Shown piece by piece: positions 1 through 26,771 of a stretch of 32,000 nucleotides of DNA. Under the pieces are notes generated by a model. That model was given only the letters and a program-made list of their open reading frames with translations. It was not told the DNA's origin and did not search any database. The position numbers and the translations under genes were made by a program. Source of the stretch: Nitrososphaerota archaeon (GTDB taxonomy: Archaea; Thermoproteota; Nitrososphaeria; Nitrososphaerales; UBA57); contig PAVW01000020.1 of assembly GCA_002713205.1 (NCBI GenBank), positions 9,349-41,348 on the forward strand, written 5' to 3'. The stretch's first letter is position 1; each line of letters begins with the position of its first letter.

Positions 1-570
1 TGGCCCAATGTACGAGTCCCAATTATATGCATTTCCTTCAATGTTCCTGCATGTATCATTTAATTCAAAATCGATTTCTCCATCTTCTGGATTTATTGAT
101 AAAATAGAACATGCTACTGTACTAGGAAACAATTTACCATTAATCAGATTTAATCCATGAACATGTAATGCACCGCCTGTTATTGGTAATTTTCTATAAG
201 CTTCTTTCCAATCAAAATCCCATATATTTACCCACTTTAGATTTCCTGTTGAAGAATCTATTGCATATGTGTCTCTCATGTTGGTTGTAAAATATACTGT
301 GCCATTAATTACCAAAGGAGGCGTCATTGAACCTTCTGTTAAAGAAATCCCTTCTTGTTCATTAAATTCAGCAGCAGGAATTGGGTAAGTCCATTTCAAT
401 TCCAACATATGTGCGTTATCTGCGTTAATCTGATTCTGTGGTGAGTAGTTTGTTCCTCTCACATTGTGATTAATGAATTCCCAATTGCCTTGATTAGATA
501 ATGCTTGAATTTCTGATGATTGTGCTATTATGCTGAATAATATCAAAATAATTATTATAGTTATCTTCAA
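1..570 (-). CDS. PQQ-like beta-propeller dehydrogenase-family protein, N-terminal 190 codons (rest of gene lies left of the window)
   Basis: Not in the ORF track because it runs off the edge. The reverse-strand frame ending at nt 1 is open for 190 codons. It reads (L/M)KITIIIILILFSIIAQSSEIQALSNQGNWEFINHNVRGTNYSPQNQINADNAHMLELKWTYPIPAAEF...TPPLVINGTVYFTTNMRDTYAIDSSTGNLKWVNIWDFDWKEAYRKLPITGGALHVHGL..., colinear with the N-termini of the 625..2904 and 5331..7604 proteins. There is no ATG. TTG (complement of 568-570) is the first start after an in-frame TGA. Confidence 0.6.
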   Translation of the reverse strand, partial: MKITIIIILILFSIIAQSSEIQALSNQGNWEFINHNVRGTNYSPQNQINADNAHMLELKWTYPIPAAEFNEQEGISLTEGSMTPPLVINGTVYFTTNMRDTYAIDSSTGNLKWVNIWDFDWKEAYRKLPITGGALHVHGLNLINGKLFPSTVACSILSINPEDGEIDFELNDTCRNIEGNAYNWDSYIGP

Positions 571-624
571 TTTCTTACCAGAATATCACAATTATAATAT
601 TTAGAATTTGATGTTTTTTTGTTA

Positions 625-2904
625 TTATATCTTATTTGTTAATTTTATGATTTTTATAATGGATATTCCAATTATTATAATTACTACAGAACCTAATAAT
701 ACATTATAGAATTGTTCATCGAACCAATAGTTATCCCCCGAATCACTTTCTAAAATTCTTGATTCTGCTTTTTTCTCCTCTATTTCTTGTTTCTCAGGTT
801 CTGGTTCTACTGGTACTGGCGCTGCGGGTGCTGGTATTTCAACACAATCACCTCGTACTCCTGCTTCGCAAAGAGAATCAACACCCGATGATGCTGGTTC
901 ATTTATTTTTTCAATATAATTATCAGGTAAACCAAAAGAAAATATAGCCCCCGGAATGTTTTGTTTTGTTATACCTCCTATTGCATAAGCTCCTCTTCCT
1001 CCACTAATCACAAATAATCTTGGTTCCCCATCAATTGTTTTTCCTATTGTTGGTAATACTAATAATGAATTACTAAGAAATATATTATCTAATAATTGCC
1101 CATTGTCAGCATCAAACATATACAAATTTCCATCTGCCGCAGGCAAATATACGACTCCGCCACTTACCATTACTCCGCCCCTATATGCAACTCCATCAAT
1201 AAAATAACTCCATTTTACTTTACCTGTTATTGCATCAACTGCATATAGCGTAACATTTTTTGGTTGCGTATCGAGATAATAATCTTCACCTGGTTTGTCT
1301 CCTAGACTTCCATATTGTCCTGCTTTTATTGCTTTATCTACTCCTCCTGCGACAGGAAGAAAAATTGTTTGTTTATCCATATCTACTGCAATATCTGCTT
1401 CTCCTGCTCTTGCTGGAATCCAATAAAACCAATCCTTTGATGGATAATTCAACCATTTCTTTTCCTGCATGTCATAGTAACTCATTACATTATTCCAATA
1501 TCCATCCTGAGTATTTGGATCACATCCTATGCAAGGATGACCCGAAGTTCTTCCTCTTATCGCTCCATCTGGATCTGTTCTACTTTCTAGTAATGGTGAT
1601 TCAAATATCCACAATGGTTCACCAGTAGCTGCATCAAGAGCCCAAAGTAGACCTGTAACAGAATACTTTAGTATTACTTTCTTTTCTTCACCATCTATTG
1701 TTAGTTTAGCGAGAACAGTATTCCAAGAACTGTCTCCTTCTACCATATCTCGTGGAACTTGTTGATACCACCAGACCATATCTCCTGTCATTACATCTAG
1801 AGCTATTGTAGATGCTGCATACAAATTCGGACCCGTTACAAATGTCTGATTAGGCCAACTGCCTTGATTTCCAGTACCAAAATAGACTATACCTGTTTCT
1901 TCATCAATTGCCATTTGACCCCAAATTGCTGCCACTGACGACGTAAAATGTTTTGGAACTCCCCAATCATTCATTATATTCTCCCTTGGAACGTCTATGC
2001 AAGGAATCCCGAGTTTACCTTCTTCTTTCCATTGCTTATATGAGAAGAACCATCCCTTGTCACATTCATGTAACGCCCATTCTGGATCTCCCTCTGCTGG
2101 TGGCGCTAAGAATTTTCTCCATAATCTCTTTGGAGGATCGAAGTCTAAATCATATGCATCTATAAATGCTCTACCGCCTCCCCATGATGCTGTAGCTCCT
2201 GTAATTGCCACTATTAGGATGTTCTCTTTTTGAAATATCGGACCTGGATGAGATGGGGAACCGTACTTCCCTATGCCGTTATATGATTGCCATGAATAGT
2301 TGTTTCCTTCAACATTACTGCAAATCTTGTTAATTTCAAATGATAATTCACCAGAAAGCGCATCTATTGCTTGAACTGAACAATTTAATGTACTCGAATA
2401 CAATAATCCATTTACATATTGTAAACCATGAATATGAGGTGCTCCTCCTGCAATTTCAGGTAAATCAGCTCTGGCTTTATTCCAATCGTGTTTGTATATA
2501 TTCAGCCAATTAAGATCTCCAAATTTTCCATCAAATGAATAAACATTTCTCATATTTGACGAAACAAATACATTCCCATCTACTATTAGCGGAGGTGTTA
2601 TTACGCCCTCGAATTGGATTCCTCCTGATTGATATCTTAAAAACTCTGACGCAGGTGGAAATGGATATATCCATTTTAATTCTAACATATTAACATTTTC
2701 TTTGTTAATGTCATTTTGTGGGCTATAATTACTTCCCCAGCTGTTATGATTTACAAATTCCCAATTTCTTTCTGCACGTTCTCCGCTAGGAATTGCCAAT
2801 AGGTTGTTATCTGCTTCAATAAACACTTTATTAAAAGTTGAAAAAATCAATAAGAACAAAAGAATTAGTATATATCCATATGAAAAATTCGTTATTGTTT
2901 TCAT
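625..2904 (-). CDS. Secreted, C-terminally membrane-anchored PQQ-like (quinoprotein-type) beta-propeller dehydrogenase-family protein
   Basis: Long ORF (track 625..2916 from a TTG; an ATG at 2904 gives MKTITNF... and is preferred). It has an N-terminal signal/TM segment. The quinoprotein-type N-terminal signature is ERNWEFVNHNSWGSNYSPQNDINKENVNMLELKW. PQQ-repeat motifs A-x-D-x-x-T/S-G-x-x-x-W recur (AIDALSGELSF, ALDVMTGDMVWWY, ALDAATGEPLWIF, AVDAITGKVKWSY, FDADNGQLL). A Pro/Glu linker (PAPAAPVPVEPEPEKQE) is followed by a C-terminal TM helix. No CXXCH haem motif. Confidence 0.8.
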   Translation of the reverse strand: MKTITNFSYGYILILLFLLIFSTFNKVFIEADNNLLAIPSGERAERNWEFVNHNSWGSNYSPQNDINKENVNMLELKWIYPFPPASEFLRYQSGGIQFEGVITPPLIVDGNVFVSSNMRNVYSFDGKFGDLNWLNIYKHDWNKARADLPEIAGGAPHIHGLQYVNGLLYSSTLNCSVQAIDALSGELSFEINKICSNVEGNNYSWQSYNGIGKYGSPSHPGPIFQKENILIVAITGATASWGGGRAFIDAYDLDFDPPKRLWRKFLAPPAEGDPEWALHECDKGWFFSYKQWKEEGKLGIPCIDVPRENIMNDWGVPKHFTSSVAAIWGQMAIDEETGIVYFGTGNQGSWPNQTFVTGPNLYAASTIALDVMTGDMVWWYQQVPRDMVEGDSSWNTVLAKLTIDGEEKKVILKYSVTGLLWALDAATGEPLWIFESPLLESRTDPDGAIRGRTSGHPCIGCDPNTQDGYWNNVMSYYDMQEKKWLNYPSKDWFYWIPARAGEADIAVDMDKQTIFLPVAGGVDKAIKAGQYGSLGDKPGEDYYLDTQPKNVTLYAVDAITGKVKWSYFIDGVAYRGGVMVSGGVVYLPAADGNLYMFDADNGQLLDNIFLSNSLLVLPTIGKTIDGEPRLFVISGGRGAYAIGGITKQNIPGAIFSFGLPDNYIEKINEPASSGVDSLCEAGVRGDCVEIPAPAAPVPVEPEPEKQEIEEKKAESRILESDSGDNYWFDEQFYNVLLGSVVIIIIGISIIKIIKLTNKI

Positions 2905-2921
2905 AAACACTACCAATACAT

Positions 2922-4526
2922 TTATCTCAAATATTTTTCCATGTAAGGTCCTTGAAGATGATATCCTAATTTTTTATAATATTCTCTTGTTCCAATGGCA
3001 CTTATAACGAGTATCTTATTACATGACTCTTTTTCTTTTGCAATTTTCTCTGCTTCTTCCATTAGTTTACTTCCCATTCCTTTATGTTGCCAACTAGACT
3101 TGTCTTTTTTTCCCAATGGAATTAGTTGACCATATACATGAAGTTCTCTGATTAGAGCTGTTTTTTCATCAATTTCTTTCCTATGTGCTAAAATTGAAGG
3201 AATTCGAAGTCTTGCAAAACCAATTAACGACTCACTTTTTTGCTCTTCCGCTGATATGAAATATTCATAACCTTTTGACGCTTCATATTTCTTCTTTAAT
3301 ATTTTTACATCTTTATGATTTATTTCAAATCCCTCTTTTAATTGTCTTAATCCGATTTCTCTACATCTAATACATTTACATTTGTAACCTTTTCTTCTCA
3401 TTTCTGCAATAATTAATTCTCGTATGTTGCCCTTATCTACTCCTGCTTCGATTTCTGATTTGGAAATTTCTCTTTGTATTCTCATTATTCTTACCCATTG
3501 CGGAATGTCTTTCTTAACTTCTGTTAATAAATTGATAACTGTTTGAGTATTGTATGGATCATACAATCCTTTTTGATACATTTTGTATAATCCAGTTCCA
3601 GGAACAACTAAAGTCGGATAAATTTTTAACATATCGGGCTTAAAATTAGATTCTGAAAATAAAGTTTTGAAATCTTCCAAGTCCTTATTGAAATTTGACC
3701 CAGGTAGTCCTGGCATCATATGAGCAACTATTTTAAAACCAGAATCTTTAGCTATTCTGAAAGATTCTATCACATCTTTTAATGTATGATCTCTGTTAGT
3801 GTGCTTATAGATTTCATCAGATAAAGTTTGTACGCCTATTTCTATTCGTGTAGCTCCAAATGATAGAACACTATCTATGTGCCGTTCTTTACACCAATCA
3901 GGCTTTGTTTCTATGCTAAGTCCTACATTTCTAACAATTGATTTTTCCCCTATTTTATGAGCTGTTTTTATATTATTGGAAACTCTTCCATTAAGAGCAT
4001 CAAAACAAGATTTTATAAAATTCTCCTGATAGTCGATAGGAAGATTCATGAAAGTACCTCCAATTATTAATAATTCTATTTTATCTATTTCATGTCCTAT
4101 TGCTTTTAATTGAATCATTCTATTTTTTACTTGATTAAATGGATCGAATTCAACTTCCAATGCTCGTATTGTAGCAGGTTCAGTAGGCAAATAGCTCTGA
4201 GGCGTTCCAATTTTTTCGCCGCCTGGACAGAAAACACAAACTCCATGAGGACAATTATATGGCTTTGTCATTACTGAAATCACCGCTATTCCAGATGCTG
4301 TTTTTGTAGGTTTTATTTTTAGAATTTGAGAATAATACTTTCGTTTATTTTTTGGAAGTATGTTAAATATTTCTGAATTACTTGGTATGTGATCCATCTT
4401 TTTATTTTTGACTATTTCTTTTTTTAATTCTTGTAAATTTTTAAATTGTAATGATTGATTTAAACCTAAATCTTCAGCAAGTATTTTTAAATTGTTTTTT
4501 ATAATTGTTTGTTGATACTTCGACAA
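2922..4526 (-). CDS. elp3: Elp3-family radical SAM / GNAT acetyltransferase (tRNA U34 carboxymethyluridine synthase homologue)
   Basis: 534 aa. Radical-SAM Cys cluster region KPYNCPHGVCVFCPGG...TPQSYLPTEPA. Second Cys cluster KCKCIRCREIG. C-terminal GNAT motif QHKGMGSKLMEEAEKIA. Length and domain order are typical of archaeal Elp3. Confidence 0.9.
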   Translation of the reverse strand: MSKYQQTIIKNNLKILAEDLGLNQSLQFKNLQELKKEIVKNKKMDHIPSNSEIFNILPKNKRKYYSQILKIKPTKTASGIAVISVMTKPYNCPHGVCVFCPGGEKIGTPQSYLPTEPATIRALEVEFDPFNQVKNRMIQLKAIGHEIDKIELLIIGGTFMNLPIDYQENFIKSCFDALNGRVSNNIKTAHKIGEKSIVRNVGLSIETKPDWCKERHIDSVLSFGATRIEIGVQTLSDEIYKHTNRDHTLKDVIESFRIAKDSGFKIVAHMMPGLPGSNFNKDLEDFKTLFSESNFKPDMLKIYPTLVVPGTGLYKMYQKGLYDPYNTQTVINLLTEVKKDIPQWVRIMRIQREISKSEIEAGVDKGNIRELIIAEMRRKGYKCKCIRCREIGLRQLKEGFEINHKDVKILKKKYEASKGYEYFISAEEQKSESLIGFARLRIPSILAHRKEIDEKTALIRELHVYGQLIPLGKKDKSSWQHKGMGSKLMEEAEKIAKEKESCNKILVISAIGTREYYKKLGYHLQGPYMEKYLR

Positions 4527-4607
4527 GATTTTAAATATTAATTAACTTTGGCTCTATATATTACTTCATTATATAAAGAATATTAATTTGTTCATTATAC
4601 ATGTAAT

Positions 4608-5219
4608 ATGTCTAGATATATAATTCTGTTATTGATATTTGTTCTTGGTTTATTTTCTGGTATATCTTCGAGCTATATTGTTTTTTATCCGCAAATTAAT
4701 TCGCTTAATACTTCCATTAACACATTTGCACAATTACAAATTAAACAAGATGATGTTATTCAATCTCTAGAATTAAGTAATAATTTACTCAATGAAGAAA
4801 TTAATTTACTCAAATTAAATAATTCACACTTGTTAGATCAATTAAATGAAACACAAATATTATTAGAAAAACTCCAAAATTCTTCGAATCAAATTGTAAA
4901 CTTTGAAAATTTAATTGAACCTTTGCAGGATCCACTTTTGGAAATTGTTGATAACTTTCAAAATTCAGAAATAATCATTAATAACCGGACTGCTTACCAA
5001 GTAACTGGAACAATTGTAAATTATAACACGGAAGCAGCTGAAAACATTCAGGTCCAAATAACTTGGTGGGTTTTAAGCGGTTGTGGTTGTGATTCTCTTC
5101 CACAACGCTCTGAAATAATCACAATTGAATCTATTTCTGGCCGTTCTTCTTTTAATATAGACGAAACATTTCATTTTTCATTCCCAAAATTTCAATTTTT
5201 ACGTATAGAAATTTTGTAA
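4608..5219 (+). CDS. Hypothetical N-terminally anchored protein with coiled-coil stalk
   Basis: 203-aa ORF. N-terminal TM (IILLLIFVLGLFSGISSSYIVF), an Asn/Leu/Gln-rich heptad-like segment, then a small C-terminal domain (WWVLSGCGCDSLP). No recognisable family. Confidence 0.5.
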   Translation: MSRYIILLLIFVLGLFSGISSSYIVFYPQINSLNTSINTFAQLQIKQDDVIQSLELSNNLLNEEINLLKLNNSHLLDQLNETQILLEKLQNSSNQIVNFENLIEPLQDPLLEIVDNFQNSEIIINNRTAYQVTGTIVNYNTEAAENIQVQITWWVLSGCGCDSLPQRSEIITIESISGRSSFNIDETFHFSFPKFQFLRIEIL

Positions 5220-5294
5220 AACTGTTTTTTTTACTTTAAATACCGTCTTTTTATGCTATAAACTACTGAAATGAATCTTTTTTTGTGTTTCTGG

Positions 5295-5312
5295 AGGGAT
5301 TTATATATATTT
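5295..5312 (+). promoter_or_regulatory. Putative archaeal BRE/TATA promoter of the 5331..7604 gene (leaderless or near-leaderless mRNA)
   Basis: ggagggaTTTATATATAT sits with the TATA centre about 27 nt upstream of the ATG at 5331. This is the usual TATA-to-TSS spacing in archaea. A purine-rich stretch lies immediately upstream (BRE-like). Confidence 0.45.
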
Positions 5313-5330
5313 TATTACTAAATCCAGTCC

Positions 5331-7604
5331 ATGACTCGACATTTAATAGCTAGTCTATTAGTAATTACACTACTTGTCGCAGCAGCTATATTCGTGATGG
5401 CTCCTAAAGCCAGTGCACAAAATGTAGCACCAGCTTTAGGTTCAACTAGAGCTGAACGTAATTGGGAATATATTAACGCAAACTCCTGGGGACATAATTT
5501 TAATCCTCAGACACAACTAAATTCCGAAAACATTCATCTCGCTGAGATGAAGTGGGTATTTCCAATACCTGATGCTGACTCGATAGGGTGTACTAACTTA
5601 AACGGGTTCTGTGGAACCGGTGGTATTGCACCTCCTCTTATTATAGATGGATATGCATACCTTGCCACTAATTACCAAACAATCTTCAAAATCGATATGG
5701 AAACTGGAGCTCAAGTTTGGTATAGTGAACGAACCGCAGACGGAGAAAGAACAGATATTATTGGTGAACAAGTACAATTCCATCGTGGATTAAATCCACC
5801 TGGTCTTCCAGTCTTTTCACTATCAGCTCACACACACTCAATGAACGCTTGGGAACTAAATGGTGAGATGGTCCTTTGGCTCAATTCCTTTGGTTGTACT
5901 ATTAAAGGAATTAGTGCTGAAACTGGTGAAGAAGTTTTCACTTTGTTAGAACATTGTAGAAATGTACCAACTAATTCTGGTTTGTACAACGCACAAGGTT
6001 CACATGCACCAGTTATTGACCGCAGTCACAATCAAATAATTGTAGCGGTTGGTGGACATATGGAAGGAAGTTATGGTGGCAGAGCATATGTAGCAGCATA
6101 TGATCTTGGCGCATGTAGCAGCTTCCCTTGTACTATTGATGCAACAACAGATACTCATCTGAATTGGAGATTCTTTTATCAACCTCCTAACGGTGAACTA
6201 TTCCCTGATGAATACAAAGCATGGGGTGAATGGTTAGTTGATAACTGCGCTGTAGGATGGATTGAAGGCGTAAATTCATGTGATGTCCCAGCAGAAGTTC
6301 TTCGATGGGACTGGTCAGGAATGCCTGGAACTTATAATGAGAAAACAGGTATGCCATTCAATGCAGGTGTAAGCAATATTTGGGGTGAAATCGTAGTTGA
6401 TGAAGAAAATGGTAGAGTATACTTCGGTACAGCTCAACCAGGACCTGATTTCAACACAACATTCACAAAAGGACCTCGTCTATTTGGTTCTGCCATAGTT
6501 GGTGTGAATACTGCTGACGGCTCACTTGGTTGGTATTTCCAAAGCTCCACAAAAGATGTTTGGGATATGGATTGTTCATGGAATACGACCCTCATGGATA
6601 TTGATGGTCGACGAACAGTCATTAAACAATGTAAACAAGGTCACGTTCATGCATTTGATGCAGCTACTGGTGATCCCATATGGATTACTGAAGTACCTGG
6701 TGTACATTTCTCCAAGTATTACTGCAATGCAGCATGTGATAACGGCGGTGGACCTAACAATGGTCTTAGAGGTCGTGGTGTACTACACTCTGTACCACTA
6801 GGTATAGATGGTCTAGGAGACAATGCAAAGAATTGGGCATTCTTTGATATGAGAGTACCTGAAGATGTCCTCAAACCATGGCAAAGTCACCCAGCACCTC
6901 AATCTCAAAGCTTCTGGCAAAATCCTAACGGTTCTGGATGTGCAGAAAATGATATCGCATTCGATGGTGATAGAGTATATGTTGCATGTAAGAATGAACC
7001 TGTATACATTCGAGCGATGAATGTAGATTTCAGATGTCATGCATTCACAGGATGCTTCATGGACAATAGAAACGACGATGCACCGTTCCCGCGAGAATTT
7101 AATCACACAGTTACAGCAATTGATGCTCGTACTGGTGAAGTAGTGTGGGACTTCTTTGTTGATACCGTTGCACACCGTGGTGGTGTAATAGCCTCCGGTG
7201 GAGTATCCTATTGGAATGGTTTCGATGGTAAACTCCGTGCAGTTGATTCAGCAACTGGTGAACTTCTTCATCAATTCAACTTTGGTACAGCTCTAGATAC
7301 ACAACCTATTATCGGTCAAACAGCTGATGGACAGACACGACTTATGCAATCCTATGGAGGCAGAGGTCTAACGAGTCAAGTACCATCACTCAGGGGTTCA
7401 GTACCAGGTGCTCTTACTGCATTTGGCTTACCTGATCAACTACCTGAAGGCGTTAGCCGAGAAGTAGAAGTTAGAGAGGTAATCAAAGAAGTAGAAGTAC
7501 CAGTAGAAACAATTAGTCCAATTTCTTATGTTGCAATTGGACTCGGCGTCGTATTAGTCGTCGTTGCTGGAGTTCTCTTCACAAGATCACGTCAAACAAC
7601 TTAA
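5331..7604 (+). CDS. Secreted, C-terminally membrane-anchored PQQ-like beta-propeller dehydrogenase-family protein (divergent, Cys-rich paralogue)
   Basis: 757 aa. Signal peptide ending ...APKASAQN. Same N-terminal signature as the paralogue (RAERNWEYINANSWGHNFNPQTQLNSENIHLAEMKW). PQQ-repeat motifs KIDMETGAQVWYS, GISAETGEEVF, GVNTADGSLGWYF, AFDAATGDPIWIT, AIDARTGEVVWDF, AVDSATGELLHQF. Glu/Val-rich linker and C-terminal TM (YVAIGLGVVLVVVAGVLF). 16 Cys versus 8 in the 625..2904 paralogue. Confidence 0.8.
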   Translation: MTRHLIASLLVITLLVAAAIFVMAPKASAQNVAPALGSTRAERNWEYINANSWGHNFNPQTQLNSENIHLAEMKWVFPIPDADSIGCTNLNGFCGTGGIAPPLIIDGYAYLATNYQTIFKIDMETGAQVWYSERTADGERTDIIGEQVQFHRGLNPPGLPVFSLSAHTHSMNAWELNGEMVLWLNSFGCTIKGISAETGEEVFTLLEHCRNVPTNSGLYNAQGSHAPVIDRSHNQIIVAVGGHMEGSYGGRAYVAAYDLGACSSFPCTIDATTDTHLNWRFFYQPPNGELFPDEYKAWGEWLVDNCAVGWIEGVNSCDVPAEVLRWDWSGMPGTYNEKTGMPFNAGVSNIWGEIVVDEENGRVYFGTAQPGPDFNTTFTKGPRLFGSAIVGVNTADGSLGWYFQSSTKDVWDMDCSWNTTLMDIDGRRTVIKQCKQGHVHAFDAATGDPIWITEVPGVHFSKYYCNAACDNGGGPNNGLRGRGVLHSVPLGIDGLGDNAKNWAFFDMRVPEDVLKPWQSHPAPQSQSFWQNPNGSGCAENDIAFDGDRVYVACKNEPVYIRAMNVDFRCHAFTGCFMDNRNDDAPFPREFNHTVTAIDARTGEVVWDFFVDTVAHRGGVIASGGVSYWNGFDGKLRAVDSATGELLHQFNFGTALDTQPIIGQTADGQTRLMQSYGGRGLTSQVPSLRGSVPGALTAFGLPDQLPEGVSREVEVREVIKEVEVPVETISPISYVAIGLGVVLVVVAGVLFTRSRQTT

Positions 7605-11767: not shown

Positions 11768-12337
11768 TTAATCTACAACTATTATAGTTCCTGTCATAAA
11801 TGGATGAGGATTGCATTTGTAATTGAATTCTCCAACTTGTTCAAATTTATGTGAAAAACCTGCATCGAATCCCATTTCAATGGACTTGAATAATCCGTCT
11901 TCTGATGTGACGTCATGCCAACCGACACCTCCTCCACCACCATCTAACTGGGTATCTTGATTCCTCCAAGTAATTGTAGATCCTTTTTTAATTTTAATTA
12001 CTGCAGGTTTAAATTTGTAATTATCCATAATTATCTCAATATTCCCTTCTAAAACTGTTAGCTCACATTTATCACCAATTAAAACTTGTCCAAATGGACA
12101 TTTTTGTTCTGGTTCAGCAACTGGTTCTGGTTCAGCAACTGGTTCTGGTTCAGCAACTGGTTCTGGTTCAGCAACTGCCTCCTCTTGATTTTTAGATTTT
12201 TCTCCAGATTCGGCCATTTCATCTAAAACATTAATAGAATTATTAGAAGTATCCGGAAAACTATTCGAATAAATGAATATGCCTCCTAATATAATTAGCA
12301 ATGCAATTACAATTGGAACTACAGGTAGTTTATTCAT
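11768..12337 (-). CDS. Membrane-anchored type-1 (blue) copper protein, plastocyanin/cupredoxin family
   Basis: 189 aa. N-terminal TM anchor and an acidic (AEPEPV)x4 linker. Cupredoxin domain with candidate Cu ligands His in GWHDV and C-x2-H-x2-M in YKCNPHPFMTGTIIVVD. Confidence 0.8.
   Translation of the reverse strand: MNKLPVVPIVIALLIILGGIFIYSNSFPDTSNNSINVLDEMAESGEKSKNQEEAVAEPEPVAEPEPVAEPEPVAEPEQKCPFGQVLIGDKCELTVLEGNIEIIMDNYKFKPAVIKIKKGSTITWRNQDTQLDGGGGGVGWHDVTSEDGLFKSIEMGFDAGFSHKFEQVGEFNYKCNPHPFMTGTIIVVD
12107..12178. repeat. 4 x 18-bp in-frame tandem repeat (ttctggttcagcaactgg) encoding the (AEPEPV)n linker of the cupredoxin
   Basis: Three perfect units and a fourth differing at its last base, read directly at 12107-12178. 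Confidence 0.9.
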
Positions 12338-18509: not shown

Positions 18510-20909
18510 TTAACCACAACTAGAATATGAACAGGATAAACATTTACTACATCCTTCGCTGTGTATTAATGAATTTTCACCGCACATTTCACATTGTTTT
18601 TTTACATTTATTTTTTCTTCCGTTTTTGAAATATTGACTTTTACTTCTTGTTCATTATTTATGACTTCTACTTGTTCATTATGTATAGTATCTGCAAGTG
18701 CATGAGCAACAGCGTCAGGCACCGATCTTATAGGAATGCTATTGCCTTTGGTTTGATGCCATGAGATATTCTTAGTTTGTATACCTCTCATTGTTTTGAT
18801 AATTGATGAAACATCAATATTTGATTGCAGAGCAATTGAAATCAGGCGACCCATTCCTTCATAGGCTGCTTTTTCTTCATCTACTGATTTTCCTCTCTCG
18901 ATAAAAACTTCACGAGGAACTCCATTTTCATCTTTATTAATCGTTATAAAGAGCCCACTATTGTTATATGTGAAACGATAAGTCCTTCCTATCAAATATT
19001 CTGGACGGATATATCCTCCTGATAAAATATGAGCCCCTTCTGCATTCTTGCTTTCTCTTAGATTCTTTGTTTTTTCTGTTTCTAAAACCTGTAAATCTAA
19101 ACAACCATCTCGATATACTGTAATTCCTTTACAATGTGTATTATAAGCTAAATTGTATGCTTTGTTAACATCTTCTACCGTTGCTTCATTGGGCAAATTA
19201 ATCGTTTTACTTACTCCGTCATCAACAAATTCTTGAAAAGCTGATTGCATTAAAACATGTTTTTCACCACTCAAATCAGATGCTATTGGAAACATGTCCT
19301 TGACGGTCTGAGGAATCCATGTAATGTCTTGTATACTTCCTCCATTTTTCGAAATTTCTAGAATCTTTTCTTTATCTAATGTTATTCCTTTTTCAGATAA
19401 TACCTCTTTAAAAAATTCATTTAAATGATGTAATTCTTCAAATTCTTCACTCCTCTCTTTTATCCTTGAATGTCTTACATACACCAATGCAAAATGTGGT
19501 TCTATTCCTGGTGAACAACTAGCTATGGTGCCAATTGAACCTGTTGGAGCTATTATTGTACAATTTACATTTCTAACTCTCTTTTGTGTTTTTGCAAAAT
19601 CACTTTTATCCCAATAAGGAAATGTCCCTCTTTTCTCTGCAAGATCTTCTGACATTTTCCATGCAACTTCTGAGATGAATTTCATTAGATTTCTTGCGAA
19701 TTGGTATGATTTTTCTGTTCCATATTTTATTCCTATTTTACTTAACAAATCAGCAAATCCCATTACACCTAAACCTAGTCTTCTCATGTTATGAGACATT
19801 TCTTTTATCTCGTTTGTGGGATATTTATTCACTGAAACAACATTATCCAGAAAATGAATTGTGTCTCTGACACTTTCTCTTAGTTTATTCCAGTCTATAT
19901 CATCATTCGTTGCATTAATAAATTTCACAACATTAATTGATCCGAGATTACAACTCTCATTTGGTAGAAGAGGTACTTCACCACATGGATTTGTAGATTC
20001 AATTGTAAAATGTTCTCGCACAGGATTTGATAAACTATTATTTATTTTATCAATAAATATTAAACCTGGGTCTGCACATTCCCATGCATATTGAATTATT
20101 TTTTCCCATAGTTCTTTCGCCTTTATTCTTTTAGGATTGCCTCCACATAATTTACACACGTCAAAAATATTTTTATCATTAAGAAAAATATTCTTTCCAC
20201 AATCTTCACATTTTAATACTTCATTTCCAGTTCTTGGATTAATAAATTTATGATTTTCATCATTTCGCAGTTCACTCATAAATTGTTCAGTAATTGCAAC
20301 CGATATGTTGAATTCTTTCATAATTTTTGCCTGTTCATCTAAATTCATATTATTTCTTTTCATTTCAATGAATTCAATTATATCTGGGTGTTCTATACTT
20401 AGAATTCCCATATTCGCACCTCTGCGTTTTCCTCCTTGTTTAATTACTTGTGTACATTTATCAAATAATTGCATAAATGATACTGGTCCTGATGCTACTG
20501 ATCCCGTAGATCCGACTTGATCTCCTTCAGGCCTTAATTTACTAAATGAAAATCCTGTTCCGCCACCTGTTTTTTGAACAATAGCTTGTGTTTTTACTGC
20601 TTCTAGTATTGAACTTGTATTATCTTCGACCGGTAGTACAAAACACGCTGATAATTGCCCTAAAGTTGCGCCTGCATTCATGAGTGTGGGTGAATTTGGT
20701 AAAAATTCAAAATTTTTCATTAATTTATAAAATTTTTCCTCTGACTCTACTATATTGAAATCATTATATTCATTATCTGCAATAGCAACTGTTTTAGCTA
20801 CTCTTCTAAACATTTGATCAGGTGTTTCTTGCTTTCCATCTTGTTTTATTAGATATCTTGCTTTCAACACTTTCATTACATTTTCGGATAAAGTTTCTGC
20901 AATTTCCAT
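18510..20909 (-). CDS. nrdJ: Class II (adenosylcobalamin-dependent) ribonucleotide reductase
   Basis: 799 aa. Active-site finger loop ESTNPCGEVPLLPNESCNLGSINV. N-terminal LKARYL...ETPDQMFRRVA. Internal CxxC...CxxC insert (CEDCGKN...CKLCGG). Cys-rich C-terminal tail (CEMCGEN...CSKCLSCSYSSCG) as used for re-reduction. Confidence 0.9.
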   Translation of the reverse strand: MEIAETLSENVMKVLKARYLIKQDGKQETPDQMFRRVAKTVAIADNEYNDFNIVESEEKFYKLMKNFEFLPNSPTLMNAGATLGQLSACFVLPVEDNTSSILEAVKTQAIVQKTGGGTGFSFSKLRPEGDQVGSTGSVASGPVSFMQLFDKCTQVIKQGGKRRGANMGILSIEHPDIIEFIEMKRNNMNLDEQAKIMKEFNISVAITEQFMSELRNDENHKFINPRTGNEVLKCEDCGKNIFLNDKNIFDVCKLCGGNPKRIKAKELWEKIIQYAWECADPGLIFIDKINNSLSNPVREHFTIESTNPCGEVPLLPNESCNLGSINVVKFINATNDDIDWNKLRESVRDTIHFLDNVVSVNKYPTNEIKEMSHNMRRLGLGVMGFADLLSKIGIKYGTEKSYQFARNLMKFISEVAWKMSEDLAEKRGTFPYWDKSDFAKTQKRVRNVNCTIIAPTGSIGTIASCSPGIEPHFALVYVRHSRIKERSEEFEELHHLNEFFKEVLSEKGITLDKEKILEISKNGGSIQDITWIPQTVKDMFPIASDLSGEKHVLMQSAFQEFVDDGVSKTINLPNEATVEDVNKAYNLAYNTHCKGITVYRDGCLDLQVLETEKTKNLRESKNAEGAHILSGGYIRPEYLIGRTYRFTYNNSGLFITINKDENGVPREVFIERGKSVDEEKAAYEGMGRLISIALQSNIDVSSIIKTMRGIQTKNISWHQTKGNSIPIRSVPDAVAHALADTIHNEQVEVINNEQEVKVNISKTEEKINVKKQCEMCGENSLIHSEGCSKCLSCSYSSCG

Positions 20910-21206: not shown

Positions 21207-23291
21207 TTATTTGTGCGGGTATTCTATTAGAGATGTGGAATTACATTCAATACATTTTTCTGCGGAATGTACATTTTTCTTCGCACATGAAATGCATACT
21301 TTCATTTTGTGATAAAATTTAAAGAATGGTATTCTTTTCCCGGTTTTTTTTGCGATTTCAATAATATTTTTTGCATTTAAATCAGTCACGTTTATTGACA
21401 CTGAAAATCCTCCTTTGTACCTTTCTATGAATGTTCCAATATTATCTATTGTATCTGTCTCACTTGGATTTATAATAATTGATTGTGAATATGAATTGTC
21501 TTGATTTTCTGTCTTTACTCGCGCCTTGCCAAATTTATCTGTGTCAAGAAGAGCAAATCTCATACTTGATCCATCTGAAATTGTGGAAATCCCATATTCT
21601 TCGCCTAATTCTTTGCTTGCCGAAGCAATTTCTTCGTTTGCTGTATCTAAAATCTTTGAAATAAGTTTAGCTTTTTCTTTTCCTGTAGCTTTTGAATCGG
21701 TTAGTATATCTATTGATTCATTTAATCCTGTAAAGTTAATAATTAAAGGAATTTTTTGATTGGAAATAATTCCACTATTCATACGTAATAATGGCAAAAG
21801 ATCTTTTCCTACCATGTCGTCTATGATTTCTCTCCTTGTTGAAAGTGCTGAAATAGCTATTTTTAATATGAGATTCACTTTTGCTCTGAAATATATATCG
21901 TCTCTATTTGATTCATATGCTAATCGCGGTAAATTTATTGATAGTGAATGCAGTGCTATTCCCCCTCCGGCTTGTTTTTTATTATTTATTGATTTACTAA
22001 TTCCTAATAAACTGAAACAAGTTTTTTCATTACTGTTTATTGCTATATATCCTCCATTTTTTATAACTGGAATAATTTTATTCAGTATATCATTATCTGA
22101 TTTCTTCCAATCCACCGCTATAATTAAACCCACTTTTGGAATTGCAGTTGATTTGATATATTCAAAATATGATTCTAATATTACTTTATTTATTTTTGTT
22201 ATTTTTTTACCATCATTTTTATAATTCTTTGATATTGATAAATCTAAACTAATAAATGGTCCGTCAACTTCTGCTACAACTTGAGAAATCATTTTTATCA
22301 TTTGCGTAAGATTATCTTTTATATCCGCCATTGATTGATTGTCAGTGTATTTTAGTATGTAATCTAAAAAATTATTATAAATAATTTCTGAATTTATTTC
22401 TTTTTTTAATTCTGATGTTAACAAAACTATGTTTGCTAATGCGTCATTTAGTTTATTTGGCATTATTATTTTTACTGAATTTAGTAATTTTCCTTGTAAT
22501 TGTATGCCTTGTGCAGGTAATGAATTTAAATCTATGAATACATTATCTGGTTTTAATCCCCAAGCGCCCAAGTTTGAAATATGTATGTCTCCTGATAAAT
22601 GTGCATCTGTAATATCTCTCGTTAATTGATTTAATAATAAATATTCAGAAAAAACTGCTTTTGAAGTTTGAGAGATTACTGAATCCACACCATTGGTGCT
22701 TCTAGAAAATTGATTTAATAATTTTGTTACATCATATATTGGTAAACCTATTCTAGTTAATTTATGTCGATATTCTTCTAAACCATTTTCAATTAAGAGA
22801 CCATTTACTATTTCTCGGATTAAAGGAGCCGTTAAGTAGCTTGTTTGAAATTTATATAATCGTGTTTCTGCTTCACTGGTCATTTTCTGCGCTAAATCTA
22901 CAGGCATGCCTGCTTCGTTAACTAATGATTGTAGTATTCTATCAGGTTTGAATTCTTCCATCATTTCTCTTGACGTTCTGACATAGATCTTTCCACTTTC
23001 TATGACACTTTGCTCTTCAATTTGCCTTGTAAGATTCAAAATTAATCTGCCTAAATTTGTAACAGTATAGCGCCTTTCTGCTCTATTTAGAGTAACAAGC
23101 AGCTGCCGTACCAGTTTTCGAAGATGATATGCAAATTTACCTGATTCTTTTTTTGATTTAAAACCTGCAAGTGTCTTTAATTCTGAATAACTCAAAGGAC
23201 CCTTTGAATTAAGAATTCGTAAAATATCTAACCTGTTTGCCGATGCTATTACTGAGTAAATTGTTCTTACTCTTTTCGACGTGGCTTGCAT
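21207..23291 (-). CDS. Fusion protein: ArsR-like winged-helix DNA-binding domain + ATP-cone + class III RNR (NrdD)-like body with C-terminal Zn ribbon; glycyl-radical motif apparently absent
   Basis: Numbering from ATG at 23291 (694 aa). wHTH about aa 9-90 (NRLDILRILNSKGPLSYSELKTLAGF...FAYHLRKLVRQLLV...RYTVTNLGR). ATP-cone about aa 101-182 (KIYVRTSREMMEEFKPDRILQSLVNEAG...LTAPLIREIVNGLLIENGLEEYRHKL). NrdD-like blocks: AHLSGDIHISNLG, TCFSLLG, GGGIALHSLSINLPRLA, INFTGLNESI, SSMRFALLDTDKFG. Zn site CISC...CIEC is followed by only 11 residues (NSTSLIEYPHK). The track's start at 23354 is a TTG inside a repeated intergenic element and is rejected. Confidence 0.7.
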   Translation of the reverse strand: MQATSKRVRTIYSVIASANRLDILRILNSKGPLSYSELKTLAGFKSKKESGKFAYHLRKLVRQLLVTLNRAERRYTVTNLGRLILNLTRQIEEQSVIESGKIYVRTSREMMEEFKPDRILQSLVNEAGMPVDLAQKMTSEAETRLYKFQTSYLTAPLIREIVNGLLIENGLEEYRHKLTRIGLPIYDVTKLLNQFSRSTNGVDSVISQTSKAVFSEYLLLNQLTRDITDAHLSGDIHISNLGAWGLKPDNVFIDLNSLPAQGIQLQGKLLNSVKIIMPNKLNDALANIVLLTSELKKEINSEIIYNNFLDYILKYTDNQSMADIKDNLTQMIKMISQVVAEVDGPFISLDLSISKNYKNDGKKITKINKVILESYFEYIKSTAIPKVGLIIAVDWKKSDNDILNKIIPVIKNGGYIAINSNEKTCFSLLGISKSINNKKQAGGGIALHSLSINLPRLAYESNRDDIYFRAKVNLILKIAISALSTRREIIDDMVGKDLLPLLRMNSGIISNQKIPLIINFTGLNESIDILTDSKATGKEKAKLISKILDTANEEIASASKELGEEYGISTISDGSSMRFALLDTDKFGKARVKTENQDNSYSQSIIINPSETDTIDNIGTFIERYKGGFSVSINVTDLNAKNIIEIAKKTGKRIPFFKFYHKMKVCISCAKKNVHSAEKCIECNSTSLIEYPHK

Positions 23292-23340
23292 CTCTATTTT
23301 TATATATAAAAAAAAACATTTAAAGGTTAAGTAAAGTTGA

Positions 23341-23393
23341 CCATTTTTTGACAAAATTCTATTTTTGTACTAAAAACTGACCAAATTACTTAT
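23341..23393. repeat. Direct repeat copy 1 (53 bp) upstream of the wHTH/ATP-cone/NrdD-like gene
   Basis: ccattttttgacaaaattctatttttgtactaaaaactgaccaaattacttat. The last 31 bp are identical to copy 2 and the first 22 bp show about 6 mismatches. Confidence 0.85.
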
Positions 23394-23636: not shown

Positions 23637-25085
23637 TCAAATAACAATTAATTTAATTGGTATTGATATAGTTATTGGTTCATTTCTTGCACTTATCATC
23701 AAAGTATATTCTCCTTTGTTTAATTTTTTATCAGTATCGATAATCACGTTTATGTATTTTTCTCCACTGATGGTTTTTCCATCATGATCAAATTCAACAG
23801 TTATATTCTGCAGTTTTCCATTATTTGAAAAAGTTCCTGATGCACTGAAATCAATATTTCTTGTTCCTTTAGTTTCTACTTTTAACATAAAGTTCGATTT
23901 TGAATTCGGTTGTATTTGAATTTCTCTTGTTGATGATTCTATGGAAAATGGTATCTCTTTTGATGAATTTAGAAACGCAATTTTACTTTCAGTCCATTCT
24001 GTAAACCAAATATTATCATTTTTATCTACATCGAACTGAAGTGAATTGGATATATTTCCCCAGTTTTTGTTTCTTGTTGGAATATCATATTCAATTAATA
24101 TTGCTTTTTCCATATCAAATTTTGCAATTGTATTTGCTTGGTGAACATTAAACCACATATTGCCTTTAGAATCGAATTTATTCCAATATGGTAATGTAGT
24201 CGAGAATTGTGATGTACTTAATGATGTGGAAAATTTTGTAAATGTATTATTTTTAAGATCGAATAATACAAATTGACTTGAACCATGGTCAGTTATCCAT
24301 ATCATCTCATTTTTAATTGCTATACCGACTGGAGATGTAATTTCTTTCGGCAATTCAAAAATTTTAAATTCATTTGTTTCTTCCATGAAGCTTATTACTT
24401 TGCCTTCTACAGGCCAAGTAAGAATTGTAAACCATATTTTATCGTTTGAATCTATAGATATTCCTCCTAACAAATCAAGTTTTATCGGCGGTTCAATTTC
24501 TTTAATTCCTTTACTTGTATTCATTAATATTTCATTAATATCCAATTTTGCTATTTTATTTCCAAAAATTTCTGCCACCCAAATATTATTATTGTTATCA
24601 TTGATTATTTGGACTGGATAACTTCCTTTCGTTGGAATTATAAAATTACTAAAACTTTTTTCCTCTTTATTGAATTTCCATATCATATTGTTTTTATGGT
24701 CAGTAAACCACAGATCTTCTTTAATAGATATTAAACTCCATGATTCTACTCCCTTAACACTTTTTGTTTTTATTACGAATTCTGTAAAAATTTCAGATTT
24801 TGGATCAAAAGAAACTAATTTGCTAAAGTTGTTTTCAATAAACCATATTGTATTTTGCTCATCTACAGTGATAGCTATTGGTGCTGAACAAGGTTGTGGA
24901 ATTATATATTCTGTAATGTATTCATTTTTGTTTGGTTTCCTTATGTTACAAGAATCATCTTTATTGTTGAAATCTGACATGTCGTATTCATTTTGTATTA
25001 AATATCCTAATGTTAATCCTAATGTTAGAGAAATTAACAATATTATAGTGACAAATTTGATATTCTTTTTAATAATTACTTTCAA
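23637..25085 (-). CDS. N-terminally anchored extracellular beta-propeller repeat protein (Vgb/COG4257-like blades) with C-terminal Ig-like domain
   Basis: 482 aa. N-terminal TM (FVTIILLISLTLGLTLGYLI). About seven roughly 40-45-aa repeats each ending in an aromatic W-F/I-T/A motif (TIWFIE, DLWFTDH, NIWVAE, KIWFTI, MIWITDH, NMWFNV, NIWFTEW), followed by a roughly 100-aa beta-rich tail. Family assignment is by repeat pattern only. Confidence 0.6.
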   Translation of the reverse strand: MKVIIKKNIKFVTIILLISLTLGLTLGYLIQNEYDMSDFNNKDDSCNIRKPNKNEYITEYIIPQPCSAPIAITVDEQNTIWFIENNFSKLVSFDPKSEIFTEFVIKTKSVKGVESWSLISIKEDLWFTDHKNNMIWKFNKEEKSFSNFIIPTKGSYPVQIINDNNNNIWVAEIFGNKIAKLDINEILMNTSKGIKEIEPPIKLDLLGGISIDSNDKIWFTILTWPVEGKVISFMEETNEFKIFELPKEITSPVGIAIKNEMIWITDHGSSQFVLFDLKNNTFTKFSTSLSTSQFSTTLPYWNKFDSKGNMWFNVHQANTIAKFDMEKAILIEYDIPTRNKNWGNISNSLQFDVDKNDNIWFTEWTESKIAFLNSSKEIPFSIESSTREIQIQPNSKSNFMLKVETKGTRNIDFSASGTFSNNGKLQNITVEFDHDGKTISGEKYINVIIDTDKKLNKGEYTLMISARNEPITISIPIKLIVI

Positions 25086-25161: not shown

Positions 25162-25282
25162 GCGGGGGTAGCCAAGCCAGGTCAAAGGCGCTGGACTTAA
25201 GATCTTTCTCAATTTTGAGAAACAGCAAAAATTGGATATCCCGTCTCTCAGGAGTTCGTGGGTTCAAATCCCACCCCCCGCA
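25162..25282 (+). tRNA. tRNA-Leu (anticodon UAA) with an intron of about 36 nt in the anticodon loop (approx. 25202..25237)
   Basis: Acceptor GCGGGGG/CCCCCGC, discriminator A. D arm GCC-AAGCCAGGTCAAA-GGC. Anticodon stem CTGGA, loop CT-TAA-G then intron. Exon 2 is A-TCCCG. Long variable arm T-CTC-TCAG-GAG-TTC (14 nt, Leu-type). T arm GTGGG-TTCAAAT-CCCAC. Mature length 85 nt. The junction is ambiguous by up to 3 nt (gatc / atc repeat). The anticodon stem carries one U-C mismatch. Confidence 0.8.
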
Positions 25283-25327
25283 CTACCAATCGAAAAACTA
25301 ATACATTCGTAAATTCTATTATCTACC

Positions 25328-25531
25328 ATGACAGAGAATTTCAAACAGAGATTAGATTCTGATCTCGTTTTTCGATTAATAGGATTCATTTTAATTTTGA
25401 TTGGGATGCTTTTAGCTTTATATACTTCTGACACTTCGACACTTGCTTCTCAGATAGTTCCTATCTATTATTTTATATCCGTTTCCCTTATCGCTGCAGG
25501 TTTTTTAGGTTTGATTTCTGTTCTTAAATAA
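25328..25531 (+). CDS. Small two-TM membrane protein, hypothetical
   Basis: 67-aa ORF with ATG start and two hydrophobic helices (LIGFILILIGMLLALY; YYFISVSLIAAGFLGLISVL). No homology evidence. Confidence 0.4.
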   Translation: MTENFKQRLDSDLVFRLIGFILILIGMLLALYTSDTSTLASQIVPIYYFISVSLIAAGFLGLISVLK

Positions 25532-25565
25532 ATTATATAACTTCATTATAGTTATTTATAATATA

Positions 25566-26654
25566 ATGATTCGCACTATAATTCTTGGTGTCTGAAACTC
25601 AACTAGTGCATTAGTCCAAGGTCTTACATATTATTAGGCAATTTAAAAAAATCATAATAATACAGGTGATTTTGGTTTATGACATACGATAGTTGGTAAT
25701 TACAAAATATCTGATATAGAGATTGTTGGAGATTACGATATAGATAATAATAAAATTGGTATTGATCTTAACAAAAGTATATTTTCAACTTCTAATAAAC
25801 TCGAAAAATTTGATGATCTAGGAACATTTGGAATTACTGTAGAACCGGGAATTCTTAATGATAAAATGAATCAAAATCTTTAATCATTTATTGTGATCTC
25901 AAATAAACCTAGATATAATCTTTTGACTGACGAAGAATTCCATAATTCATTAAACAAGAAACATCCTGATATTGTAATTAATATGATCTCCTCATGATTG
26001 CATAAAACCTTAGAAAAATATGCAGAAATTTCTATGGATATTGCCTCAAACTTTATTAACGCAACACCAACAAGCATTGCAACTAATGAAACATTCGCGA
26101 AGAATTTCACAAATAAAAAATTGATTATTGTAGGAGATGATTTGATGAGTCAATTTGGCGGTACTGCTTTTCATAAAGGAATTATGAACCTCATACACTA
26201 ACGTGGAATTCACATAAACAAAAGTTATCAGTTAGATGTTGGTGGTGGAATTGAAACAAATAATACAGTTGACGAGAATTCACATGCCTCGAAAAGACAA
26301 GTTAAATCTAATACTATTGAATCCGAATTACCATACGACGTTCAAACTGTTTCAGGCACTACTGATTATGTTGATTTTATGGGTAATTCTCGTACTAATT
26401 ACTTCTGGATTGACGCTGATTCGTTTTTGGGCTCTAAAATTCGGTTTGATATTTACTTACGTAGTAGTGATTGTCCAAATACTGGTGGATTATTATTCGA
26501 CATTATTCATGGTATTCAGTATTCTCGAGATATGAACGAATATGGAAACATTGAAGAATCATTTAATTTTGGTTTTAAATCTACTTTCACTAAGAATGAG
26601 TTAAGACAATCTTATCAAAGTTCAATTTCTCAAAAAAATATGTTCTATAAATGA
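25566..26654 (+). pseudogene. myo-inositol-1-phosphate synthase (Ino1/MIPS family) pseudogene: full length, single frame, seven in-frame stop codons
   Basis: One reading frame (phase of 25566) is colinear over about 363 codons with bacterial/archaeal Ino1. MIRTIILGV*NSTSALVQGLTYY* matches the VAIVGVGNCASSLVQG..YY region. Other matching blocks are DIEIVGDYDIDNNKIGIDLNKSIF, FINATPTSIA, IIVGDDLMSQFGGTAFH, YQLDVGGG and LRSSDCPNTGGLLFD. Stops: TGA 25593, TAG 25635, TAA 25644, TGA 25680, TAA 25881, TGA 25995, TAA 26199. No frameshift is needed. Confidence 0.8.
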
Positions 26655-26668
26655 ATAATATAATTGAG

Positions 26669-26771
26669 CGCCGCCGACAGGATTTTCATCCAAAATCTTG
26701 AACCTGCGACCAGCTGATTAACAGTCAGCTGCTCTACCACGCTGAGCTCTCACCATTTGTATTACGGCGGC
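26669..26771 (-). tRNA. tRNA-Asn (anticodon GUU) with two non-canonical introns (15 nt between positions 8/9; 14 nt in the T loop at 59/60)
   Basis: Reverse strand. GCCGCCG-T [aatacaaatggtgag] A-GCTC-AGCGTGGTA-GAGC-A-GCTGA-CT-GTT-AA-TCAGC-TGGTC-GCAGG-TTCAAG [attttggatgaaaa] T-CCTGT-CGGCGGC-G. Introns lie at plus-strand 26749..26763 and 26683..26696. Both junctions sit in 3-nt bulges flanking a 4-bp helix (CGCC/GGUG with one G-U; UUCA/UGAA perfect). Mature length 74 nt. Confidence 0.85.

Follow-up and report, generated by a model that had tools for sequence, protein, structure and literature searches.

The first 7,604 positions of a 32,000-nucleotide stretch of contig PAVW01000020.1 from a Nitrososphaerota archaeon (the window, taken here at its full length) hold three paralogous genes, referred to as genes A, B and C. 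As judged from sequence and predicted structures, their products are exported, eight-bladed propellers of the pyrroloquinoline quinone (PQQ) dehydrogenase type and form a divergent branch of the superfamily of PQQ-dependent alcohol dehydrogenases (ADHs) and methanol dehydrogenases (MDHs). By synteny, the host is a member of the heterotrophic marine Thaumarchaeota (HMT, pSL12-like) and not an ammonia oxidiser, and the three genes correspond to the right-hand end of a conserved island of six such paralogues. The explanation that probably accounts best for the whole is an HMT PQQ-dehydrogenase island whose exported, membrane-tethered propellers would carry out oxidation outside the cell. The three genes are laid out as follows:

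Gene A, 1..570, minus strand: 5' part of the gene, coding for the N-terminal 190 amino acids and truncated by the window edge (translation)
Gene B, 625..2916, minus strand: 763 amino acids from the TTG at 2916, or 759 from the ATG at 2904 (ORF calls)
Gene C, 5331..7604, plus strand: 757 amino acids (ORF calls)

Translation of gene B probably begins at the ATG at 2904, since a 98%-identical database protein (P0049) has 759 amino acids; residue numbers for gene B are counted from the TTG.

Family, predicted fold and export

All three proteins match the Pfam PQQ family (PF01011) far above its gathering score, with E-values of 9.5e-38 and 6.8e-38 for the complete genes B and C (130.7 and 131.2 bits, against a cut-off of 26.7) and 6e-16 for gene A. 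Pairwise identity is 31% between B and C over 740 residues (E = 8e-97), 52% between A and B (2e-56), and 30% between A and C (3e-27). The preliminary description of this DNA had grouped the three as paralogues by a common N-terminal signature and repeated A-x-D-x-x-T-G-x-x-x-W blades, and a regular-expression search bore this out: the signature was found in all three, and the strict blade motif occurs once in A, three times in B and twice in C. The part of gene A within the window encodes a signal-peptide-like N-terminus and the initial blades of a propeller of the PQQ type; it belongs to the same subfamily as B.

AlphaFold2 (AF2) models were built on family alignments (gene C, pLDDT 81.9 and pTM 0.83; gene B, pLDDT 78.4 and pTM 0.79). 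When both models were compared with the PDB by Foldseek, the top 30 matches were all PQQ-dependent alcohol, methanol or sorbose dehydrogenases (E about 1e-33; TM-score on the target 0.58–0.77), including the Gluconobacter ADH (8GY2), XoxF (6DAM, 4MAE and 6OC5) and PedH (6ZCV). BamB and tetrathionate hydrolase ranked far lower, at about 1e-14. A family profile searched against the PDB gave 3.5e-52 for quinohemoprotein ADH and 8.5e-47 for XoxF. Pfam, the PDB profile, and AF2 with Foldseek thus agree with the quinoprotein propeller family originally assigned. Among 1.84 billion representative proteins, gene B matched 104 clusters (50% identity) at E ≤ 1e-30 and 7,694 at E ≤ 1e-3.

In a hydropathy scan, the hydrophobic segments of B and C were confined to the N-terminus and the extreme C-terminus, and in the AF2 models the terminal helices are set apart from the propeller by a disordered linker. 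The features are:

Gene B N-terminus, 2812..2904, minus strand: signal-peptide-like, MKTITNFSYGYILILLFLLIFSTFNKVFIEA (hydropathy scan; N-terminal helix in the AF2 model)
Gene B C-terminal transmembrane (TM) helix, 655..711, minus strand: residues 736–754 (hydropathy scan, AF2)
Gene C signal peptide, 5331..5417, plus strand: MTRHLIASLLVITLLVAAAIFVMAPKASA followed by QN, with an AxA-type site (sequence reading, hydropathy; AF2 helix at residues 2–23)
Gene C C-terminal tail, 7512..7601, plus strand: ISPISY motif (residues 728–733), hydrophobic helix (734–750) and basic end (TRSRQTT)

The TM helix of gene B is preceded by a Pro/Glu-rich disordered linker (residues ~666–735) and followed by a basic tail, and the tail of gene C is preceded by an acidic, Glu/Val-rich linker (residues ~704–727). 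A signal peptide, a linker and one C-terminal membrane helix, an outward-facing arrangement already noticed in both complete genes and upheld by hydropathy and AF2, predict that the catalytic domain lies outside the cell, tethered to the outer face of the cytoplasmic membrane.

The tail of gene C has an architecture that resembles a sorting signal, with the consensus E-[TV]-[IV]-S-P-[ILV]-[ST]-Y, then a hydrophobic helix of ~18 residues, then a basic end. The same three-part tail was seen on 28 other ORFs of marine and groundwater Thaumarchaeota, in loci fetched through their PQQ-dehydrogenase matches (L001, L002, L004, L006–L012, L016, L017, L019–L021, L033, L037 and L046); genes A and B do not carry it. 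Its identification as a known sorting domain (PGF-CTERM or similar) was rejected, as NCBIfam models gave only LPXTG-like noise of 13–15 bits.

The putative cofactor and metal site

The residues of the putative active site were mapped from three concordant alignments: a HMMER profile against the PDB, phmmer against the PDB, and a MAFFT alignment with canonical quinohemoproteins, which carry CC, EYGVRG, GVGN and WDY. Equivalences are given in MDH numbering. In the canonical MDH site, the Cys103–Cys104 disulfide lies over PQQ, Trp243 forms the floor, and Arg331 (Lys in ADHs) binds PQQ, while Glu177, Asn261 and Asp303 provide the metal ligands and the base. The corresponding residues in gene C, gene B and the A-type orthologues are:

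MDH Cys103–Cys104: absent from gene C (L-S aligned), gene B (G-A aligned) and the A-type orthologues
MDH Arg109: gene C His169 (HxH); gene B His163 (HxH); A-type His
MDH Glu177: gene C E245, three residues upstream, placement uncertain; gene B A243, no acid; A-type Asp nearby
MDH Trp243 (floor): gene C W351; gene B W332; A-type Trp
MDH Asn261: gene C Q369; gene B N350; A-type Asn
MDH Asp303 (catalytic): gene C D412; gene B E393; A-type Gln
+2 position (Ala in Ca-MDH, Asp in XoxF and PedH): gene C D414; gene B D395; A-type Asp
MDH Arg331: gene C K435; gene B V420; A-type Val or Thr
MDH Asn394: gene C E539; gene B E506; A-type Glu
MDH Trp476: gene C H615, then invariant R616; gene B Y578, then invariant R579; A-type Tyr or Phe, then Arg

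The catalytic and +2 positions fall at the following coordinates:

Gene C D412-M-D414 (DxD), 6564..6572, plus strand: catalytic Asp and lanthanide-type Asp, aligned to ...HDGWDFDG of PedH and ...HDEWDYDG of XoxF
Gene B E393-G-D395, 1732..1740, minus strand: catalytic-Asp position and lanthanide-ligand Asp (HMMER and MAFFT alignments)

The site of gene C thus appears nearly complete (W351, E245, Q369, D412, D414 and K435), and on this basis gene C is predicted to encode a PQQ enzyme of the lanthanide (or calcium) type. Among the single-sequence matches of gene C in the PDB, the lanthanide enzyme PedH ranks first, and the alignment pairs FQSSTKDVWDMDC with FQSTPHDGWDFDG. Structure prediction with cofactor-site comparison, which the preliminary description had suggested, gave a divided answer: the fold is that of PQQ-dependent ADHs and MDHs and the gene C site is near-complete, whereas gene B has no equivalent of Glu177 or Arg331. 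The loss of all PQQ and metal residues, which had been named there as evidence against such a role, is not seen in gene C and is seen in part in A and B.

Across 98 clade members, the positions that align with the canonical cofactor site are the most conserved: the Trp floor is present in 91, the +2 Asp in 87, the His at the Arg109 position (His163/169) in 86, the Arg that follows the Trp476 position (Arg579/616) in 83, and the Glu at the Asn394 position (Glu506/539) in 76. Lys occupies the Arg331 position in 76 members, and the DxD and ExD states are found in 67 and 14, respectively. The E/Q-x-D state goes together with loss of this Lys, with Val or Thr in its place, and, in the genes inspected, with absence of the adjacent Cys415–Cys434 pair. 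Genes A and B retain the clade-wide His-x-His, Glu and Arg residues and appear to represent a coherent variant subfamily (46–98% identity), not decayed copies; their presumed chemistry is less certain than that of gene C. More tentatively, the Asp of the clade may be a true lanthanide signal, and A and B a new active-site variant with other chemistry or cofactor handling, a proposal that we regard as possible and rather doubtful. Relative to the available portions of the published accounts, what is new here is this residue-level map, which splits the clade into a DxD/Lys type (gene C) and an E/Q-x-D type without the Lys (A and B).

A motif scan found neither a CC dipeptide nor a haem c site (CXXCH) in A, B or C, as the preliminary description had stated. 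It had also reported a C-x-x-C-D motif common to B and C, which did not hold up: the motif is C462-IG-C465-D (CxxC) in gene B and C465-NAA-C469-D (CxxxC) in gene C, and the two lie in different, non-aligning insertion loops. The motif is kept in 21 of 29 B-subfamily and 11 of 21 C-subfamily members, and the cysteines are gained or lost always as a pair. Because they always co-vary in this way, as expected in exported proteins, the paired cysteines suggest loop disulfides. A metal or redox site at C-x-x-C-D was ruled out by the unequal spacing, the non-homologous loops, the patchy conservation and the paired co-variation.

Host lineage, island and neighbouring genes

One genome per species (185,579 species) was scanned with the family alignment, which yielded 64 loci, and every window protein was compared with the relatives' loci by tblastn. 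The closest loci belong to HMT metagenome-assembled genomes (MAGs): ASW2_bin45 and ASW8_bin1 (from Reji & Francis), isolate ATL (HMT_ATL, from Aylward & Santoro), UBA223, ALOHA_A2.5_79 and Langseth_MAG_00051. Over the parts that each HMT contig covers, the window is collinear with them gene for gene across more than 20 kb, in the common order A-B-Elp3-ORF203-C-atpF-Mrp-atpE-(MFS)-membrane protein-cupredoxin-atpA-atpB-atpD-pyrI-pyrB-ribonucleotide reductase. Identity to the HMT loci is 87–91% for AtpA, 93% for AtpB, 84–90% for gene A (to full-length orthologues in L002, L001 and L004), 74–79% for gene B and 72–74% for gene C. Since the whole window is collinear with HMT MAGs and 87–93% identical to them in ATPase subunits, its host is read as HMT. 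The best species representative reaches about 79% for gene B and about 74% for gene C, and the window appears to come from a species or genus other than the published HMT MAGs.

No named genus of ammonia-oxidising archaea (AOA), such as Nitrosopumilus or Nitrosopelagicus, was found among the 48 matches listed, the best 120 of 533, or the 64 loci; the protein searches covered 5.8 billion proteins. Two syntenic MAGs are labelled "uncultured Nitrosopumilales" in the database, which is a taxonomy label and not evidence of ammonia oxidation. The 2020 HMT paper (PMC7300363) reports the HMT MAGs to be without ammonia monooxygenase (amo) genes and the 3-hydroxypropionate/4-hydroxybutyrate cycle. Remoter homologues are found in groundwater Thaumarchaeota, Gagatemarchaeaceae and Caldarchaeum, then in bacteria at 22–24% identity; a protein of the deep-Ionian fosmid KM3_90_H07 (P0138), which the same paper groups with the HMT enzymes, is 56% identical.

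The island of UBA223 has the order C - ORF203 - Elp3 - B - A - p3 - 255-residue ORF - p4 (DYD) - cupredoxin - p5 (DWD), and its paralogues follow one another in the same way in ASW2_bin45 and ASW8_bin1 over the stretch that their contigs cover. The cluster of the relatives extends past the left window edge by three more paralogues and a cupredoxin, and the UBA223 order indicates that the window would show only the right-hand end of the six-paralogue island. The island paralogues, of which there are at least six, share 29–60% pairwise identity.

The island, the export signals, the missing Cys-Cys, the DxD motifs and the high expression are already published for HMT. The 2020 paper counts 4–19 PQQ dehydrogenases per HMT MAG in 21 families; all are without Cys-Cys, four have DYD and five DXD, 15 have signal peptides and 19 TM segments, and eight are within the 40 most expressed genes (PMC7300363). 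In its Data Set S4, ATL_04680 (contig 17, gene 72) is entered as a PQQ-dependent dehydrogenase; its place on the contig makes it the probable orthologue of gene C. Reji & Francis (bioRxiv 10.1101/2019.12.22.886556) describe these enzymes and their signal peptides for ASW2 and ASW8, and Sheridan et al. (PMC10640624) found the genes lying together "in adjacent pairs or trios". In 2026, a study of 104 genomes again placed them among the most expressed genes (PMC13374868). In the lanthanide literature, we found no treatment of thaumarchaeal eight-bladed enzymes beyond the DYD/DXD remark of 2020.

The genes around and beyond the three dehydrogenase genes that bear on the island are:

Elp3-type gene, 2922–4526
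ORF203, 4608..5219, plus strand: 203 amino acids, N-terminal TM segment and coiled coil; same strand as gene C and directly upstream of it
Type-1 cupredoxin, 11768..12337, minus strand: N-terminal TM segment, (EPEPVA)x4 linker and H...C-x2-H-x2-M ligands (Pfam Cupredoxin_1 and Copper-bind)

ORF203 had no significant match among the Pfam or NCBIfam models. Its position is kept in six HMT MAGs, at 33–46% identity across the C-terminal 90–125 residues (tblastn), and it may be an accessory protein of gene C.

Gene C has a GC content of 0.42, compared to about 0.31, and the surplus lies mostly at codon positions 1 and 2, so that it reflects amino-acid composition. At the third codon position, GC is 0.245 in gene C and 0.215–0.245 in A, B and C together, compared to 0.12–0.21 in most neighbouring genes. 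These data are not decisive for or against horizontal transfer of gene C. The raised third-position GC of the three genes could reflect expression-linked codon bias or an older horizontal acquisition; the latter is suggested for these genes in the 2026 HMN study (PMC13374868).

Several other features of the window are recorded here as side observations. A 715-residue protein (21207–23354, minus strand) combines a helix-turn-helix, an ATP-cone and an NrdD-like domain of the anaerobic class III ribonucleotide reductase family (PF13597, 1.8e-40); its gene adjoins that of a standard ribonucleotide reductase large subunit with a TSCPD domain (18510–20909, minus strand), which is odd for a presumed aerobe. 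A 482-residue exported beta-propeller of the virginiamycin B lyase/NHL/SGL type (23637–25085, minus strand; PF24684, 2.7e-29) is unrelated to the PQQ family and has homologues of 25–27% identity in the HMT loci L035, L040 and L051. A tRNA of 121 nucleotides was found by Rfam at 25162–25282 on the plus strand (46 bits) and missed by ARAGORN, and probably contains an intron. The ~1.8 kb that follow it (25300–27090) hold no ORF over 100 residues. A short ORF at 26757–26939 translates to ...GPVGFDPTT..., a peptide associated with translated tRNA sequence, and may mark another tRNA or a fragment.

Proposed function and comparison with known systems

An extracytoplasmic oxidoreductase role, as the preliminary description had proposed, remains the best reading of the family, fold and export signals. 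In the mechanism that we favour, the propellers would bind PQQ and a metal (lanthanide or calcium) in the central funnel and would oxidise small alcohols, aldehydes or sugars outside the cell. Because the lineage has no cytochrome c, the acceptor of the electrons would be a membrane-anchored blue-copper protein or the quinone pool, from which they would reach a terminal oxidase, so that energy could be gained without substrate uptake. The same route, to quinone or blue-copper proteins in the absence of cytochrome c, is proposed in the 2020 paper (PMC7300363), where the orthologues are discussed as PQQ dehydrogenases feeding the respiratory chain. The role had been called unassigned, but it has not escaped notice, since the orthologues were annotated in this way in 2020.

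The cupredoxin at 11768–12337 is a candidate for the electron acceptor. It has a complete His/Cys/His/Met ligand set, and its position is kept in HMT MAGs (tblastn). The closest NCBIfam model is amicyanin (3e-10, below the cut-off), which is the electron acceptor of a different quinoprotein dehydrogenase. In UBA223, a second, paralogous cupredoxin lies between two PQQ-dehydrogenase paralogues (L004, 19313–19963).

Several points weigh against this explanation. The trusted cut-off of NCBIfam TIGR03075, the methanol/ethanol subfamily (480 bits), is missed by B (144.5 bits), C (106.9) and the partial A (60.4), and the "acido-empty-quinoprotein" model TIGR04528 gives comparable scores (B 119.1 and C 92.1 bits). 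Several canonical PQQ contacts are substituted: Cys103–Cys104 is missing, Arg109 and Asn394 are replaced by His and Glu, respectively, and Trp476 by His or Tyr. Gene B is without the Glu177 and Arg331 equivalents, and in gene C the equivalence of E245 with Glu177 hinges on a loop with a three-residue insertion, placed by sequence alignment only. The link between the cupredoxin and the dehydrogenases is inferred from proximity only. The supply of PQQ is the weak point of the proposed mechanism: no pqq gene lies in the 32-kb window, and the sole PQQ-synthesis gene listed for HMT in the 2020 paper is that of a pqqC-like TENA/THI-4/PQQC-family protein (PMC7300363), which is weak evidence for PQQ synthesis because 51 of the thaumarchaeal genomes compared there have a member of its orthologous group. 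Finally, the function of the clade is predicted here from sequences and models.

Some of these points would also be explained if some or all of the proteins, especially the B/A subfamily, were "empty" quinoprotein-fold hydrolases, binding proteins or surface scaffolds that hold no PQQ. There is precedent in the cofactor-free tetrathionate hydrolase and BamB, which share the propeller, and the Cys-Cys ring missing from every member, the loss of Glu177 and Arg331 and the Glu/Gln at the catalytic Asp in A and B, the TIGR04528 score nearly equal to that of the PQQ-ADH model, and the single pqqC-like gene reported for HMT all fit such proteins. However, true PQQ enzymes are matched about 20 orders of magnitude better than BamB or tetrathionate hydrolase, the residues aligned with the canonical cofactor site are the most conserved in the clade, and the TIGR04528 cut-off of 650 bits is far out of reach of both B and C. 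The Foldseek matches also include the MDH mutant D303E (1h4j), in which the catalytic Asp is replaced by Glu, a viable change that reportedly retains activity. We therefore consider a cofactor-free role unlikely.

A dedication of genuine PQQ dehydrogenases to C1 compounds, with XoxF-type methanol oxidation feeding a partial methylotrophy, has been proposed for the ASW MAGs by Reji & Francis (bioRxiv 10.1101/2019.12.22.886556), and would agree with the DxD motif and with the place of XoxF or PedH near the top of the structural and sequence matches. Set against this, identity to XoxF is only 16–19%; the Cys-Cys pair that, according to the 2020 paper, is common to all bona fide methanol dehydrogenases (PMC7300363) is missing; and at least six divergent paralogues per island (29–60% identity) point to a range of substrates. 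The 2020 authors themselves regard the prediction of substrates as extremely speculative (PMC7300363). Dedication to methanol thus seems improbable, and somewhat more so than a cofactor-free role.

The preliminary description had set the genes beside the lack of a recognised hydroxylamine oxidoreductase in AOA; on that reading they would be periplasm-side oxidoreductases of an ammonia oxidiser and might supply the absent step of hydroxylamine or NO oxidation. Extracytoplasmic redox-type enzymes without assigned substrates, blue-copper proteins nearby as in AOA electron chains, and the PQQ-dehydrogenase homologues that some AOA lineages, of soil or thermophilic, are reported to carry (PMC10640624) lend this some appeal, but a universal nitrification enzyme must occur in all AOA, whereas the window is collinear with HMT MAGs reported to be without amo and no named AOA genus was met among the matches listed or the 64 loci, so that a link to archaeal nitrification is essentially excluded.

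The HMT island is already published, and the gene cluster adds little as a discovery. Its value is rather as a pointer to genes reported to be among the most expressed of a widespread dark-ocean archaeal group, as a correction of the tempting but wrong link to the missing hydroxylamine-oxidation step, and in the residue map, which can help experimenters to choose the paralogue to begin with and the positions to change by mutation. What is still of interest is the putative lanthanide-type site, together with the variant B/A subfamily. If the lanthanide signal is true, Archaea would here have their first eight-bladed lanthanide-PQQ enzymes, with a blue-copper acceptor replacing cytochrome c, and the energy metabolism of abundant deep-ocean archaea would be tied to rare-earth availability.

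Among known systems, the acidobacterial "empty quinoprotein" group A (TIGR04528) shares a divergent PQQ fold and bit scores near those of the PQQ-ADH model. By name, it covers PQQ-enzyme homologues thought to be cofactor-free; with 119 and 92 bits against 650, membership of the window proteins is unsupported. The best overall profile and Foldseek matches are the Gluconobacter ADH (8GY2) and the Comamonas and Pseudomonas quinohemoprotein ADHs (1KB0, 1YIQ and 1KV9). Membrane-bound and quinohemoprotein ADHs have in common with the proposed function an extracytoplasmic, membrane-associated oxidation that feeds the respiratory chain directly, but in both a haem c domain (CXXCH), fused or as a partner, is present along with Cys-Cys, and the window proteins have neither.

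With XoxF (6DAM and 4MAE), PedH (6ZCV) and ExaF, the window proteins share the eight-bladed fold and the Trp floor, and gene C also shares the catalytic Asp with a second Asp at +2 (WDMD in gene C, WDFD in PedH and WDYD in XoxF) and the Lys/Arg after blade 5. In contrast, they are only 15–21% identical to these enzymes, lack Cys-Cys, and have His at Arg109, Glu at Asn394 and, in gene C, Gln at Asn256, together with a longer Glu loop and about 150 extra residues in insertions. They are also tethered by a C-terminal TM helix and have no cytochrome c partner, whereas XoxF, PedH and ExaF are periplasmic and soluble. The closest likeness is to the PQQ dehydrogenases of HMT themselves, with which the window proteins share 72–90% identity, gene order, neighbours, the signal peptide and TM anchor, the missing Cys-Cys, the DxD motif, and the co-localisation of paralogues beside blue-copper proteins.

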